NCBI GenBank assembly: GCA_963665275.2 | Contig: CAXXIN010000007.1 | Coordinates: 480,001 to 544,000 of the forward strand | Origin: Negativicutes bacterium | GTDB taxonomy: Bacteria > Bacillota > Negativicutes > UBA1444 | Reading direction: 5' to 3' | Length of the DNA stretch: 64,000 bases | Shown here: in pieces, positions 5,998 through 11,879 of the stretch | Layout: each line of letters opens with the position of its first letter | Position numbering within the stretch: the stretch's first letter is position 1 | Made by a program: the position numbers and the translations under genes | Notes under the pieces: generated by a model | What the model was told of the DNA's origin: nothing | The model's input: only the letters and a program-made list of their open reading frames with translations | The model's database searches: none

Positions 5998-6672
5998 TCA
6001 GGTTCCCACCACTTCGAGTTCCTGTATTTCGCCCTTATTATAATGCGTCAGAATTTCGCCTGCAAACTGAAGAATCCGGCTCAGTTCTTCGGAGCTGGCG
6101 CCACTACCGGCAAACACCACCGATAGCAAATTACGGGTTGAAAGGGACACTGCCGTACGCTGAGAATCGGACGTGGGATTGCCAAATACGCCGAGATTAT
6201 CGGCAAGAAAAGGTTTCCCCTCAGTTGAAATCTGATGCCCGCCAATATTGGTGTAAGAGCCTTCATGGGCCCGCCGGTACACAATATCGCCTTCAATCTT
6301 ATCCAAATCATACAGACCAAAGGGCATCAGATACTTCAATGAACAATAGTTGCTGGCATCGACCGCGCTATTAACATAATAGACGCCTTTCTTCTGCAGC
6401 ACTCGCCTAACCAGTGCCTCTGACGCCGGACGGTATCGGCTCGGATCAAAGTCCAACTTTTTGTACATGGAACGCACTGCCATGATTGGAGGCAACTGCG
6501 TCAACCCTTCAATATTATATATTTTAGCCACTTCGTTTTGCAGCTTTAAAAATTCCAGACTCAAGGATGGCGAAGAACCGACGATACCGACATTGTTAAT
6601 TACGATAAAACCAATTCGGCAATCCGGATAACTCGCTAGTATTCCTTCATCGATGCTCAAGTTTAAAGCCAT
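5998..6672 (-). CDS. Stand-alone B3/B4 (PheRS-beta editing-like) domain protein
   Basis: DPSRYRPASEALVRRV, VNSAVDASNYCSL, PFGLYDLDKIEG, FGNPTSDS. Confidence 0.88.
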   Translation of the reverse strand: MALNLSIDEGILASYPDCRIGFIVINNVGIVGSSPSLSLEFLKLQNEVAKIYNIEGLTQLPPIMAVRSMYKKLDFDPSRYRPASEALVRRVLQKKGVYYVNSAVDASNYCSLKYLMPFGLYDLDKIEGDIVYRRAHEGSYTNIGGHQISTEGKPFLADNLGVFGNPTSDSQRTAVSLSTRNLLSVVFAGSGASSEELSRILQFAGEILTHYNKGEIQELEVVGT

Positions 6673-6720: not shown

Positions 6721-7791
6721 TCAAACCGTGATCAGTTCATAATCCAGCGATCCCATTCCGATTTTCGCAGCATGCCCGACCTGAATCATCGCATCATTTC
6801 TGGCATGCGCCATTTCAGCCAGGGTTTTCCCATGCCTCTCCGCCGTCAGGTCCAGTGTTGCCTTGTCAACTGCCACTGGATCAAAAGATGCCAAAATCCC
6901 GATGTCCGGAATGCATTTTTCCTGCTTCACGCTGAAGCAATCACAATCACTGGTCATATCCACCAGGACGTTAATGAACAGACTCTTGCCGGCCTTTCCT
7001 TTTAAAATCCCATAAGCATGCTCGGCCATACTTTTCTGAGTGAAACCAGATTCAGCATTCCAGTCGTATTTCACCGCATCAAAGCGACAAACCGCCAGGC
7101 ACTCGCCGCAACCAATACATTTTTCCGAAATAATGAACGCCTTGCCGTCTTTCTCAATAATTGCCTCCTGCGGGCACCACTGAATACATTTTTTACAGTA
7201 GCGGCATTTATCGTGGATCACTTCCGGCAGCATCGCCGAATGCTCCCGCATTTTCCCCATGCGACTGGCCAGCCCCATACCGATGTTCTTGATACATGCC
7301 CCCAGGCCCGCCACCACATGACCGGTCGCATGCGAAACCACGATCAATGCGTCGGCACCGGCAACTTCCCGGGCCACTTTCACACTTTTGTGAAGTTCAC
7401 CATCAATCTGGATCTCAAATTCCGCATTGCCTGTCAACCCATCGGCCATGATAAAAGGAGCGTCCATAGCTTCAATGCCGAAACCGTGCCGATGTGCATG
7501 CAATATATGTTTGACGGCATTCTCACGCTCTCCTTTATACAGGGTGGAGGTTTCCGTCAAAAAGGGCTGCCCGCCCGCTTCCCTGGAAAGATCAACAACC
7601 TTGCGGATCAACTCCGGTTTGACATGTGTTGTATTATTTTTTTCGCCGACATGAAATTTGATTGCTACGAAATCCCGCTTCGCGATCACCTGATTCAGTT
7701 CGCCGGCGGCATATAGTTTCTGCAAGGCTTCTACCTGTTCCGAAGCCGAGGCGCCATCTGAAACTTTTGCCAAAAACACTTTTGATTTCAT
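6721..7791 (-). CDS. DUF362 domain Fe-S protein with 2x[4Fe-4S] ferredoxin insert
   Basis: VAIKFHVGE, SHATGH, GACIKNIGMG, CRYCKKCIQWCP and CIGCGECLAVC, CDC, DPVAVDKA; ATG at 7791 after RBS ggagga. Confidence 0.88.
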   Translation of the reverse strand: MKSKVFLAKVSDGASASEQVEALQKLYAAGELNQVIAKRDFVAIKFHVGEKNNTTHVKPELIRKVVDLSREAGGQPFLTETSTLYKGERENAVKHILHAHRHGFGIEAMDAPFIMADGLTGNAEFEIQIDGELHKSVKVAREVAGADALIVVSHATGHVVAGLGACIKNIGMGLASRMGKMREHSAMLPEVIHDKCRYCKKCIQWCPQEAIIEKDGKAFIISEKCIGCGECLAVCRFDAVKYDWNAESGFTQKSMAEHAYGILKGKAGKSLFINVLVDMTSDCDCFSVKQEKCIPDIGILASFDPVAVDKATLDLTAERHGKTLAEMAHARNDAMIQVGHAAKIGMGSLDYELITV

Positions 7792-7822
7792 TTCGAGCAC
7801 TCCTCCATAATTCAATATTGCT

Positions 7823-7853
7823 AAAAAGCGGAGCGCGGAACTCCGCGCTCCTT
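7823..7853 (-). terminator. Intrinsic terminator-like hairpin after the TM1266-like gene
   Basis: ggagcgcgga/tccgcgctcc stem followed on the minus strand by a T run. Confidence 0.6.
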
Positions 7854-7882
7854 GATTATACATTAATGGGACAGCGTATTTC

Positions 7883-8146
7883 TCAAAACTCGAGGGACAT
7901 CATTTTGACTTTTACATAGGGAACACTCTGCAGCTCTGACTGAAGTTTTTCAACCTCTGCTTTGGCGCCGCAAACTTGCAGCAAAATCAGCCCGCTGGGT
8001 GAACAAGTCTCGACCCCTGCATCATGCAGCCCCAGCCGCAAACGAATACTACAGCCGTTACGGGTAAGGATCTCCTGCACCTTTGTTGCCGTTTCCACGC
8101 GATGTTCCTGTAAAACAGCCATGATATAACCACATTGCTCCGTCAT
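7883..8146 (-). CDS. Small ACT-fold protein related to TM1266 'iron-only hydrogenase system regulator'
   Basis: IMAVLQEHRVETATKVQEILTRNGCSIRLRLGLH...GLILLQV pattern; RBS ggaggagg before ATG 8146. Confidence 0.6.
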   Translation of the reverse strand: MTEQCGYIMAVLQEHRVETATKVQEILTRNGCSIRLRLGLHDAGVETCSPSGLILLQVCGAKAEVEKLQSELQSVPYVKVKMMSLEF

Positions 8147-8220
8147 ACCGATGCCTCCTCCCATTTATTTAAGTAATTCCCCTTGAAAAGTTCTCCATAA
8201 TCGGCGAAAACTCCTGCCTG

Positions 8221-9955
8221 TCAACCCAAGTTGACCCACCCTCTGTATACTAGTCCACGCATCACATCGATCGTGATCTGTTCATCTTCCAGGAGTAGTT
8301 CGGTCGCATCTGCCGCGCCCACGATGATCGGCTTACCGAGAGTCATGCAGGCGATCGCCGCATGCGAGGACAATCCGCCCTCTTCCACAATCAGGCCAGC
8401 CGCTTCTTCAATCAGTCCCAGATGTTCGTTATCCGTAGCAGCGATCGCGACAATTTTATTGTGCGCCCGCTTATTGATATCGAACAGGGATTTGACGATG
8501 GCAACGCGTCCGCTGACGATCCCGTTGCCGATTCCCTGCCCCTTTAGAATGATATCGCCCACGGTGATCAGCTTGACGGAGTTGTAAGCATTGGGGATAT
8601 CCATATTCCCCAACACGCCGACCACGGAATCGCCGTCTTTCAGGTGATTTCCCTTGAGCGTCGTATCAATGGCCAGCTGCATCATATCTTCCTGCCGCAG
8701 GGGTCCGCCGGCTGAGCAGCGGCTGAATTCCCCACGCCAGCCGAAGCTGCCGCACCAACGTGGGGATTGGGGGATACCGCCAAGTACCGGCAGGGCATCT
8801 GCCGGGTACTTCGCCAACATGCGGGGAGTGAATCCGGTTTCCGTCGGCACCACAAAGGCCATCGATTTCATTGCCTGAGAGGCGTGAACTGCGGTTGAGC
8901 AGAGAGCGTCCGCCACCGGGCTGGCCACCACATGGCCCACCCTTTTTTCGCCGCGGGGAACTCAGTACTTTTGTCTTCCTGTAAGCCGGGCCGCCGCTCT
9001 TCACCGAGGTCAATACGTCCAAGGGGGAATTTCAGCGCCGCGCCGGCAGTAGTCACCAGGATGCCGTCAAATCCCTTTTGAACAGCCTTCTGAACGAGAT
9101 CCTGTCCTTCCACCCCCGAAACGGCCATCGTTTCCTGCACTGACCCGGCAACAAACAGAAACTTGGCGGCCTGCGTCGCCTTTGCCACCAAAACCGGCAA
9201 TAATGCGATACGACTTTTCGCCATCCGCAAACAGACCGGCAGTCCACATACCAATCCGTCAGCAATCTGGAGAGCGTCTTCCAAATTGCCTGTAGCGGCT
9301 GGCTTCATGCGGGCCAGTACCATGATGTTGGCTTCCACAGTGTCCAAAGTGCGCCTGAACTTCGATCAGAGGCGGACATGCTCCGAATCCGTATCGACGA
9401 TCACGACACAGTCCATGCCAGCCTTGATTGCCATTTCCGCCGCCTGAATCCGTTTTTCCGTTGTCGTTTTCGTTATATCTCACTATCATTAAATTGGCAA
9501 CATGCCCGTATCATTGGCGGCTTGCCGAACCGCCCCGCACCTGTCCGCGACCATTGGGCGCCTTCATCGGCGCAAATTTGGCAGAGAGAACTGGCTCCGT
9601 CCAGTCCATCCATTTCGAACAAGCGCCTGCATGCGTGCGTATATTCCAATCCTCTTCCAGATACGAAGACGATCTTGGTTGCACAGTGTTCCGCCGCTTC
9701 GCCGGACGACAACGGAAGAGAACTGCCGGACACATAATACCCACTGCCGCCCCGAACTTCGATCAGACCGATATATTCAAGCGCGCTGAGCGCCTCACGC
9801 ACCGATGAGCGACTGGTACTGAAATGCTCGCACAATTCTTTTTCGCTTGGCAGTTTCTGGCCGCGGTGAAAGCGTCCGCCCTCTATTCCCTGCCGCAAAT
9901 AATCAATAATTAACCGATAGGTTTTGGCACTGCTCTTTTCGCCCGGTTCTTTCAA
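8221..9955 (-). CDS. GntR-HTH / degenerate pyruvate kinase (A and C domains) / PEP-utiliser phospho-His swivel fusion protein; broken by several indels
   Basis: GntR wHTH (GQKLPSEKELCEHFSTSRSSVREAL) reads in frame into PK-like TKIVFV; PK-like segments follow in ORFs 8868..9347 and 8221..8940 (PTETGFTPRMLAKY; GQGIG; EEGGLSSHAA); TTG start at 9955 after RBS aagggg. Confidence 0.75.
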
Positions 9956-10101
9956 TGAAGAGGCCCCCTTCCCGAATATCAGGTCCATTTCGATGTCTTA
10001 TTCGTAGTTTAATTCGTTATTCCAAAGGGCTTTTCCTGTTGCCTTATAAAATGCCCGGCCAAAAACTTTGCTGAATCCTTTTATATTCATTTCCACAGGT
10101 G

Positions 10102-10135
10102 TATAATAAAATAAAATTCACAGTAGTCTGACATA
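10102..10135 (+). promoter_or_regulatory. pckA promoter -10 box (TATAAT 10102-10107) and candidate GntR/FadR-type operator (core GTCTGAC 10126-10132)
   Basis: Perfect TATAAT; palindromic GTC-T-GAC core in AT-rich flanks just downstream; -35 weak. Confidence 0.5.
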
Positions 10136-10204
10136 TTGCATATTTTTATCTCTTTGTTTCGTCACTTGTCTTATTAGCATCGTCTTCGAAAGGGGAAATA
10201 AAAA

Positions 10205-11809
10205 ATGAAACCAGGACTTAATGAATTACTTCTTTCCAAGCATCAACAGCCAGTACATATCAACATGCCGATTCCCCGCCTGATTGAATCTTCCATCCTG
10301 AGGGGGGAAGGCGCCTTATCAGCCACAGGAGCACTGCGGGTTTCCACCGGAAAATATACGGGGCGCTCCCCGAATGATAAGTTCATCGTGGATACACCTG
10401 ACGTTCATAAGGACATCTGGTGGGACAACAATCTCAAAATTTCCGAAACAGCTTTTGATCGTCTGCTGGGAAAAACATTGAATTATCTCGAAGATAAAGA
10501 GCTGTTTGTATTCGAAGGATTTGCCGGCGCAGATCAGGGGCATGCCCTGCCGGTCCGGATCATTAACGAATACGCTTGGCATAATGTTTTTGTCCAGCAG
10601 TTGTTTTTGCGAATCTCCAATGACCACCGGTTGGTCTTTTCCGGCAGAACCCGGATTCACCGTCCTGTGCCGCGCCGGGAGTTAATGCCGTGAACCGGAG
10701 GCAGGACGGCACCAACTCCGAAGCGTTCATTCTCGTCAACTTCTGCGCGCCGGATCGTCCTGATCGGCGGAACACAATACGCCGGCGAAATGAAAAAATC
10801 CATTTTCTCTGTTTTGAATTACTTACTTCCCAAACAAGGGATCTTATCCATGCACTGCTCGGCGAATCAGGGCTCGAAAAAAGATGTATCCCTTTTCTTT
10901 GGTCTTTCCGGCACGGGAAAACCTCTCTGTCCGCAGATCCTGATCGCTTTCTCATCGGAGACGATGAACACGGTTGGCCGAGCACGGAGTTTTCAACTTT
11001 GAAGGCGGTTGTTATGCGAAATGCATCAACCTGAGCCGCGAAAACGAGCCGCAAATTTGGGATGCCATACGATTCGGCGCAGTCCTGGAAAATACCGTTA
11101 TGAATGCCGAAACCCGGACAATCGACTATAGCAGTGAAGCAATCACGGAAAACACACGAGTGGCTTATCCGGTCCATTTTATACCGAACAGCATCTATCC
11201 CGGAACAGGAGCTCATCCCAGCACCATTATCTTCCTGACTGCCGATGCCTTTGGCGTGTTGCCGCCGGTCGCGAAACTTTCTCCAGAACAAGCCATGTAT
11301 TATTTTCTCTCAGGTTACACCTCGAAGCTGGCTGGTACCGAGCGGGGCATCACCGAGCCGCAGGCCACTTTCTCCGCCTGCTTCGGCTCGCCGTTTCTCC
11401 CCTTACACCCCATGACCTATGCCAATCTCTTGAAAGAAAAAATTGCCCGCCACCAAACCCGGGTATTTCTGATCAACACTGGCTGGCAAGGTGGCGCCTA
11501 TGGCGTCGGCAAACGAATCAGCATCCAGCATACCCGGCGCATGGTTGCCGCGGCGATGGACGGCTATCTGGATTATGTCGACTACGAAACCCATCCGATA
11601 TTCAATCTCAGCATCCCGGTCTGCTGTCCCGGCATACCGGATGGTGTCCTCAATCCCCAGACATCCTGGTCAGATCCTGTAGCCTACAAAAAATCCGCGG
11701 TCATCTCGCCGGAATGTTTGACAAAAATTTCCGCAAATTTACAGGAGTGCCCAAAGAAGTTACGGACTCCGGTCCTTTTTCACATCAGGAAACCGAGAAC
11801 GCAGTTTGA
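10205..11809 (+). CDS. pckA: Phosphoenolpyruvate carboxykinase (ATP); several frameshifts (likely assembly errors)
   Basis: [87 protein letters not shown] spread over ORFs 10205, 10690, 10790 and 10974; reconstructed end ...[14 protein letters not shown]-stop at 11809. Confidence 0.93.
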
Positions 11810-11830
11810 TCCCCCTTCTGATCCCCCTAT

Positions 11831-11879
11831 AGTTTGATAGAAGCCGGTGGCCTTGACGGCCACCGGCTTCTATCAAACT
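11831..11879. terminator. Bidirectional terminator between convergent pckA and the dehydratase
   Basis: Perfect inverted repeat agtttgatagaagccggtggcc-ttgac-ggccaccggcttctatcaaact. Confidence 0.85.

Follow-up and report, generated by a model that had tools for sequence, protein, structure and literature searches.

A putative GntR-type regulator with a pyruvate kinase-derived body lies next to pckA in a Negativicutes bacterium

We analysed a stretch of 64,000 nucleotides (the window) from a Negativicutes bacterium (assembly GCA_963665275.2, contig CAXXIN010000007.1, positions 480,001 to 544,000 of the forward strand). Here positions 8221-9955 of the minus strand encode, in a broken frame, a GntR winged helix-turn-helix (wHTH) DNA-binding domain joined to a body that clearly descends from a pyruvate kinase (PK). 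Divergently next to it lies pckA, the gene for ATP-dependent phosphoenolpyruvate (PEP) carboxykinase. The features of the fusion gene, called here the regulator gene, are the following.

8221..9955, minus strand: regulator gene in its 562-amino-acid form, TTG start at 9955, stop codon at 8221-8223, frame broken by 19 frameshifts
9731..9919, minus strand: GntR wHTH DNA-binding domain (PF00392, 67.9 bits, cut-off 27)
8950..9688 (approximate bounds), minus strand: degenerate (beta/alpha) barrel of the PK A domain, without B (lid) domain and without catalytic motifs (from alignment, fold and the ratio of nonsynonymous to synonymous substitution rates, dN/dS)
8572..8910, minus strand: PK C domain, alpha/beta, allosteric (PF02887, E-value 1.7e-8 in the window piece)
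8821..8847, minus strand: loop PTETGFTPR, sitting where canonical PKs have the loop T-E-S-G-Y-T-A-R
8254..8460, minus strand: PEP-utiliser mobile domain, PEPut or ECTD (PF00391, E 4.9e-17)
8362..8370, minus strand: Ser-Ser-His motif (GGLSSHAA), the equivalent of the TSH phospho-site motif of PEPut domains
8701..9661, strand not assigned: stretch holding all 19 frameshifts of the regulator gene, probable assembly insertions or deletions (indels)

Read from the window sequence, the TTG at 9955 is preceded by a purine-rich, GGAAGGGGG-like ribosome-binding site, and the His codon of the Ser-Ser-His motif is CAT (8362-8364). The coordinates 8221-9955 match the 562-amino-acid form, which is also the commonest length among homologues, and an ATG at 9988 offers an alternative upstream start giving a 573-amino-acid form, as in P0001, the closest intact homologue. 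An initial annotation, made from the letters alone, had stitched peptides together across frames, and all of these peptides were located in three minus-strand frames. The open reading frame (ORF) at 9473-9988 (171 amino acids, minus strand) carries the GntR domain (PF00392, E 6e-19, residues 24-86) and stays open past it into ...HCATKIVFV. As proposed there, the wHTH runs on into the PK-like part, with no stop and no separate start between them, in the window or in the orthologues. The middle ORF, 8868-9347, is without a Pfam match of its own, yet it aligns with the barrel of intact homologues, and the ORF at 8221-8940 (minus strand) carries both the PK C domain and the PEP-utiliser tail that the same annotation had named, with the E-values listed above. 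The damage is much heavier than three pieces imply: a frameshift-aware protein-to-DNA alignment against P0001 (573 amino acids) passes through 19 frame changes. Reading through is feasible all the same, with 0 in-frame stops and 504 identities in 573 aligned positions (88%), and the architecture is real.

The 19 frameshifts are most likely assembly indels and not biology, because the read-through copy has no stops and only ordinary divergence, other genes are broken as well, the assembly has few contigs, an independent contig agrees and the relatives have open frames. The neighbouring pckA has to be read through six frameshifts (at about 10625, 10668, 10744, 10922, 10978 and 11700), with no in-frame stop and with 84% identity to a relative's protein. 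The clustering weighs the other way: positions 8701-11700 form an indel hotspot, whose 25 frameshifts fall within about 3 kb, compared with about 3 internal frameshifts across some 12 kb of the genes around it. Three further genes of the window have one frameshift each (4727, 12150 and 13714), and a canonical long-type PK with a PEPut tail elsewhere in the genome (G000:C6:4600-6346; L001, L003, L004) is split over at least three frames. The assembly appears to be a long-read one, prone to indel errors, since it consists of 20 contigs and the relatives' assemblies of hundreds; about half of the indels lie at short G or C runs, the alignment placing them only approximately. Reads were checked in 4 of 24 runs (X20, X21, X22 and X24), with X20-X22 holding about 0.7 of the sampled words. 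On this stretch they gave short pieces only, none spanning the gene. One contig of 151 bases was informative (run X21, depth 2, one other letter differing): it has one base fewer at 8999 and at 9024, in agreement with the single-base frameshifts that the alignment places at 8995 and 9026, the two sites it covers. In each of the 17 other genomes with a match the frame is open (15 near full length, 2 cut by contig ends). Against four orthologues the read-through copy has an overall dN/dS of 0.04-0.07, rising to no more than 0.12 in the barrel; dS is close to saturation in these comparisons. ORF coverage was dropped as a gauge of frameshift load. Stop-to-stop ORFs of at least 150 amino acids, on whichever strand, cover 0.89 of the genome, and spurious ones opposite the genes close the gaps, so that the measure has no power to discriminate. 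Per-gene frameshift-aware alignments were used instead.

The architecture is shared by a family of intact proteins, homologues of the kind that the initial annotation had proposed to look for. A search of longer proteins with the N-terminal piece returned 65 protein clusters, every one of which combines GntR, PK_C and PEP-utilizers domains, the PK barrel being listed in 30 of them as well. These proteins are 541-622 amino acids long, mostly 562, come from Negativicutes, Sporomusaceae, Lucifera butyrica and Anaerosporomusa subterranea, and stand in the databases as 'pyruvate kinase', 'pyruvate kinase alpha/beta domain-containing protein' or 'transcription regulator hth gntr'. Within the genus, 10 of the 11 other species carry the regulator (8 complete, 2 cut by contig ends), the genus member G006 gave a match at the level of canonical PK only, and the sister genus also carries it. 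Of 301 genomes sampled evenly across the class, 18 had a match at E <= 1e-70, and these fell in 7 of 93 genera. When 1.84 billion representatives were searched with a GntR plus barrel query, three full-length matches extended beyond the wHTH (P0049, P0063 and P0069), together with fragments, and the rest of the 14,720 matches were ordinary GntR proteins, matched in the wHTH only. P0098 was rejected as a family member, being a tandem GntR/FCD protein. The regulator family is narrow, patchily distributed and uncharacterised; it makes up a GntR subfamily whose sensor derives from a PK, and its members are already in the databases, misleadingly named as enzymes.

Both ends of the protein are recognised without difficulty by sequence. 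In five of five intact homologues, PF00392 scores 66-73 bits (cut-off 27) and PF02887 scores 81.5-85.7 bits (cut-off 28), and PF00391 gives 58-67 bits against a cut-off of 23.1 in the window and the homologues. The barrel between them is marginal: PF00224 reaches 24.2 and 31.1 bits (cut-off 30) in two of the five, and no match at E <= 0.01 in the other three. By fold, the (beta/alpha)8 barrel of the A domain is present. An AlphaFold2 model of P0001 built from 53 sequences (pLDDT 83.2, pTM 0.78) consists of the wHTH, a barrel of alternating strands and helices, an alpha/beta domain and a PEPut-like, beta-rich tail. Its best Foldseek matches are 2E28 (E 5e-35, TM 0.63) and 3T05, the two solved PKs that bear a PEPut domain. 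The same two lead by sequence search (2E28 at E 4e-47, 3T05 at E 1e-40).

This PK-like body appears, from its sequence, to be catalytically dead and not a pyruvate kinase, because the lid domain is gone and the catalytic motifs are replaced. The alignment to 2E28 places query residues 158-559 on residues 171-584 of the chain and skips the B domain, leaping from about residue 93 to 171 with few query residues between, and the B-domain columns of five canonical PKs (long PKs from related genomes) find no true counterpart in the family. The motifs KIEN, MVARGDLG, TATQML and SGETA of these canonical proteins are all replaced, with less than 50% consensus among 53 family members, and the position of MVARGDLG has a deletion of 4-5 residues; in an active PK, KIEN carries the catalytic Lys and Glu, MVARGDLG carries an Asp that binds Mg, and TQML and SGETA contribute a Thr and a Glu. 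For the comparison, the region from the GMDF motif onward was used, MAFFT having set the GntR part against the N-terminus and B domain of PK, wrongly, when family and canonical PKs were aligned together. The N-terminal barrel strands were compared through a weak HMMER stretch against 2E28, and since this match has only 4 bits, loss of the N-terminal PEP and K+ residues is suggested. Identity to the canonical PKs of related genomes is 23-32%, and no NCBIfam model reaches its own cut-off for the family: the best PK model, NF004978, gives 188-212 bits against a cut-off of 462, and TIGR01064 76-87 bits against 306. The initial annotation, in which the body was an enzyme repurposed as an effector domain, holds on this point, and the separate canonical pyk that it had asked after is the long PK on contig 6. 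The genome has a second PK-like gene as well (G000:C13, L002:1363-2898, minus strand), which encodes 511 amino acids with an N-terminal extension of about 140 residues and whose best NCBIfam match, NF011314, scores 539 bits (cut-off 642).

Although it has lost its catalytic motifs, the barrel is under purifying selection and still functional. Among intact orthologues (four pairs with an overall dS below 1.6), dN/dS is 0.06-0.07 in the barrel and 0.00-0.04 in the other domains. The mean frequency of the top residue is 0.83 in the wHTH (25 of 70 columns invariant in the family), 0.57 in the barrel, 0.77 in PK_C and 0.84 in PEPut, and distant members are 65-69% identical in PEPut against 26-34% in the barrel. 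Within the C domain, the canonical loop T-x-T-E-S-G-Y-T-A-R is kept as PTETGFTPR, with P368, G372 and R376 (P0001 numbering) invariant and E370, T374 and P375 nearly so; the TE(T/S)GxT loop is presumably the effector phosphate-binding loop of PK. In the tail, S525, S526 and H527 are invariant in 53 sequences, and the family motif EEGGLSSHAA differs from the canonical EEGGLTSHAA by the change of the Thr of T-S-H to Ser; this Thr is the regulatory phospho-site in PPS and PPDK. In the PK of Bacillus subtilis, according to the excerpted text of PMC11834443, the enzyme needs the ECTD/PEPut domain to be inhibited by ATP and to be activated by AMP and ribose-5-phosphate (R5P). The TSH motif of PEPut, or its phosphorylation state, modulates the activity of B. 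subtilis PykA, according to the excerpted text of PMC9009071, and in that excerpt a PEPut domain carried by a PK is not shown to receive a phosphoryl group. The former active site would be an unlikely sensor of PEP or pyruvate, because its residues are lost and variable; the allosteric ligands of PK (AMP, R5P, ATP) or phosphorylation of PEPut would fit the pattern of conservation better. Elsewhere in the genome, a DUF299 (PF03618) kinase/phosphatase is encoded about 1.7 kb from an 825-amino-acid PEP-utilising enzyme (G000:C4:17186-17953 and C4:19672-19899), presumably a PPDK or PPS lying near the protein that regulates it, and C12:11817 and C12:136760 mark two more genes for PEP-utilising enzymes.

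A prediction with two copies of residues 1-460 supports self-association. Its score was 0.54, with 0.00 for the best control; the mark for self-association is one that 20 of 30 proteins with a paired solved structure attain, as does 1 of 23 with a single-chain structure. Contacts agreed by 100% between runs, with a partner pLDDT of at least 74. The predicted interface consists of helix 344-360 and strand 453-460, which we take to be the C-C interface of PK tetramers.

We then consider the other side of the locus, where the presumed target and the candidate regulatory sites lie.

10205..11837, plus strand: pckA (ATP-dependent PEP carboxykinase), presumed target and divergent neighbour (PF01293 on both pieces)
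10080..10107, plus strand: promoter-like site of pckA, TTTATA, 16 nucleotides, TATAAT, preceded by TG (10 of 12 matches)
10125..10133, strand not assigned: candidate operator AGTCTGACA, 17 nucleotides past the -10 element (family consensus TGTCWGACA, a palindrome of the GT-N-AC type)
10166..10174, strand not assigned: second, weaker box TTGTCTTAT, about 40 nucleotides past the first box and upstream of the pckA ribosome-binding site

In 14 of 14 loci of relatives with enough flank (9 + 5), pckA is divergently adjacent to the regulator gene. Locus L024, which ends at the regulator gene, was excluded from this count, and the regulators of the compared loci share 40-90% mutual identity. With this invariable divergent neighbour, the idea of a regulator at the PEP/pyruvate node, put forward in the initial annotation, gains support. 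The intergenic regions between the regulator gene and pckA diverge freely except for two elements: the -10 element (TGTATAAT), which aligns in all 10 aligned regions, and the box. A perfect GTCWGAC core is found in 13 of 15 intergenic regions, with a shuffle probability of 0.008-0.018 per locus, and in most loci the box lies 12-27 nucleotides downstream of the conserved TATAAT. The GT-N-AC palindrome is typical of GntR operators, and the conserved TGTCWGACA-like box at the pckA promoter is a candidate site for the regulator. A second block of columns, TGTC(T/A/C/G)G(A/T)T, follows about 40-60 nucleotides past the first box in the loci of the same family only. In G032, the most divergent carrier (about 41% identity), the position of the box is taken by a perfect palindrome, CTAAAC-N5-GTTTAG. 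L018 and L019 have the perfect core beside the ribosome-binding site of the regulator, and in these two loci the box past the -10 element has one mismatch; this CCTGTCTGACAGG palindrome, which in two species adjoins the start of translation of the regulator itself, hints at autoregulation. An extra palindrome, TCTGATTAATCAGA, lies between the -10 element and the GTCTGAC box, perfect in L022 and L023 and imperfect in L025. A search for inverted and direct repeats in the intergenic region of the window returned only AT-rich pairs without clear meaning.

We hypothesise, with a probability of about 0.65, that the gene encodes a metabolite- or phosphorylation-sensing regulator, probably repressing pckA, that reuses the allosteric module of a Bacillota-type PK. 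It would be a one-component transcription factor of the GntR superfamily whose effector part is a whole Bacillota-type PK minus catalysis, with the barrel kept as a scaffold under selection and the strongly conserved C domain and PEPut/ECTD tail corresponding to the allosteric module of the parent enzyme. Held together as a dimer or higher oligomer through the PK-type C-C interface, the protein would bind at the TGTCWGACA boxes and repress pckA from between the -10 element and the start codon. Its DNA binding could be switched through the effector pocket of the C domain (candidates AMP, ATP and R5P), through the Ser-Ser-His of PEPut, or through both, and in the simplest model a T/R-like transition of the retained allosteric switch would be relayed through the barrel to the wHTH. 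DNA binding to the box, repression and the ligand are what we infer from the sequences, and we claim no regulon, because the box is not enriched by count in the window or the genome. A more elaborate scheme, which we consider rather unlikely, would make PEPut a phospho-receiver (on its His, or on Ser by way of a PEP-dependent enzyme or DUF299) while the C-domain pocket reads AMP, ATP or R5P. The level of pckA would then be set by the PEP/pyruvate phosphorylation potential together with energy charge, possibly with a tetramer that spans both boxes and loops the promoter, and the protein would represent a new class of one-component regulator.

Several observations weigh against the proposed repression of pckA by an oligomer bound at the box. 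Two of the 15 loci are without a perfect core (L034 has a one-mismatch form, L026 a different palindrome), and in the window itself the first box has one mismatch to the 9-mer and the second is weak. Sites with one mismatch to TGTCTGACA number 11 in the window against 10.3 expected, and the exact TGTCWGACA occurs at 26 sites genome-wide, without enrichment or an obvious regulon; support for the box comes only from its position and its conservation across species, and the related loci are not independent. The pass in the two-copy prediction may reflect memory of solved PK structures. A C-C dimer by itself would set the pair of wHTH domains far apart, so that a 9-bp palindrome would need a tetramer or flexible linkers; a tetramer bridging two boxes is possible.

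The same observations can be read in other ways. It is unlikely that the protein activates pckA or acts only on its own gene, or that the conserved box belongs to another regulator: some GntR-family proteins do activate, the perfect box by the regulator's ribosome-binding site in L018 and L019 suggests autoregulation and the box is not enriched elsewhere, but its usual place past the -10 element and before the start codon is the classical roadblock position, its palindrome has the form typical of GntR operators, and the different perfect palindrome at the same place in G032 is as expected if operator and regulator co-vary. Possible but doubtful is an entry of the signal mainly by phosphorylation of the PEPut Ser-Ser-His and not by a small ligand, that is, a phospho-switch tied to the PEP/pyruvate ratio, for which PEP-dependent PPDK, PPS or Enzyme I, or the DUF299 kinase/phosphatase, are candidate donors. 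Among the sensor domains PEPut is indeed conserved best, His527 and the two Ser before it never varying, a DUF299 protein adjoins the 825-amino-acid PEP-utilising enzyme with two more such enzymes in the genome, and the effect of the TSH motif on B. subtilis PykA cited above points the same way. However, the Thr targeted in PPS and PPDK is Ser in the family, the barrel in cis has lost the residues for PEP binding, making autophosphorylation unlikely, phosphotransfer to a PK-borne PEPut is not demonstrated in the excerpt mentioned above, and the conserved C-domain loop favours a ligand.

Whether regulator and target are alive in this genome is a separate matter. That both are true pseudogenes here, decayed by many small indels, seems quite improbable. 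For it speak the hotspot of 19 frameshifts in the regulator and six in pckA and the open frame in every one of the 17 other matching genomes, and the three runs with about 70% of the sampled words contributed almost nothing on this stretch. A gene decaying neutrally through 19 indels should nevertheless gather many substitutions and stops, and the 573 read-through codons hold no in-frame stop, are 88% identical to the intact homologue and keep a low dN/dS, down to the barrel; moreover, the X21 contig lacks the extra base at both sites, unrelated genes including the canonical pyk on another contig are frame-broken too, short G or C runs coincide with roughly one indel in two, and the 20-contig assembly appears to be an indel-prone, long-read one. 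Hardly credible, finally, is that the protein is an active pyruvate kinase merely bearing a DNA-binding domain, or that the fusion is a chimera of assembly. Database names do call members 'pyruvate kinase', and one of five homologues passes the Pfam barrel cut-off by about one bit (31.1 against 30), but the B domain is absent, the four catalytic motifs are replaced and variable, the NCBIfam PK models stay far under their cut-offs, and a canonical long PK is encoded elsewhere in the genome, as is a second PK-like protein; a chimera is countered by 17 other genomes, from 7 genera, in which the fusion is a single open frame, and by its recurrence in the 65 protein clusters. A living regulator of the PEP/pyruvate node with a non-catalytic, PK-derived sensor is the reading we retain.

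Further genes lie beside the regulator gene. Just downstream of it, the ORF at 7883-8164 (minus strand, 93 amino acids) belongs to the CPF_0552 family (NF052672, 106 bits, cut-off 85), shows weak likeness to the putative hydrogenase-system regulator TM1266 and keeps its place in the loci of the same genus; a promoter-like sequence, TTGACA-16-GATTAT, is found near it at 8224-8197. Both a DUF362 protein containing a 4Fe-4S dicluster insert (6721-7863, minus strand) and a B3/4-domain protein (5998-6672, minus strand) are encoded in synteny with the regulator within the genus.

GntR regulators are sorted by their effector domains, those described being FCD, UTRA, aminotransferase-like and YtrA-type, and the enzyme-derived effector of the MocR proteins is a textbook case. 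Full-text literature searches turned up no paper on a GntR-PK fusion, in keeping with the initial annotation's word 'undescribed', and the searches made gave none on the regulation of PEP carboxykinase in Negativicutes either. A second, unrelated enzyme-derived sensor would add a subfamily to the GntR regulators, one in which a whole PK has been kept for its allosteric module, and would exemplify a pseudoenzyme turned into the sensor of a transcription factor at the PEP-pyruvate-oxaloacetate node. It would also offer a direct handle on PEP carboxykinase control in Negativicutes and possibly a biosensor scaffold for PK effectors, and the 'pyruvate kinase' labels that the family bears mislead metabolic reconstruction.

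Among known systems, the closest in sequence and fold are the Bacillota-type PKs with a PEPut domain (2E28 of G. stearothermophilus, 3T05 of S. aureus, PykA of B. subtilis). They share with the regulator the order A, C, PEPut, the conserved TE(S/T)GxT loop and EEGGL(T/S)SHAA motif, and the C-C type of self-association, predicted for the regulator; unlike them, the regulator has an N-terminal GntR wHTH and no lid, has lost the catalytic motifs and carries Ser for the Thr of TSH. CcpN of Bacillus subtilis represses pckA and gapB according to the glycolytic or gluconeogenic state and adenine nucleotides, and is built of a helix-turn-helix (HTH) plus CBS domains; the analogy is functional only, in the control of pckA, the architecture being unrelated. 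Regulators of the FadR/HutC type, among them the pyruvate-sensing repressor PdhR, are matched in the HTH only (PdhR, NanR, PhnF and HutC at E 1e-10 to 1e-15); they likewise use a palindromic site of the GT-N-AC type near the promoter of a neighbouring metabolic gene, for which the regulator has a candidate, but they carry an all-helical FCD or UTRA domain where the regulator carries an enzyme-derived body of about 470 residues. No Pfam match to aminotransferase, FCD, UTRA or YtrA-type domains was found at E <= 0.01 in the five homologues. In MocR proteins such as GabR and PdxR, the wHTH is fused to a fold-type I aminotransferase-like domain reused as a sensor, and models of PdxR and YczR hit the wHTH of the regulator with E-values of 1e-9 to 1e-13. 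The regulator, unlike MocR, has a PK fold (TIM barrel, C domain and PEPut) and none of the logic of the pyridoxal phosphate cofactor; in both, a GntR wHTH is coupled to an entire enzyme fold, which serves, or in the regulator would serve, as the module for sensing and oligomerisation.

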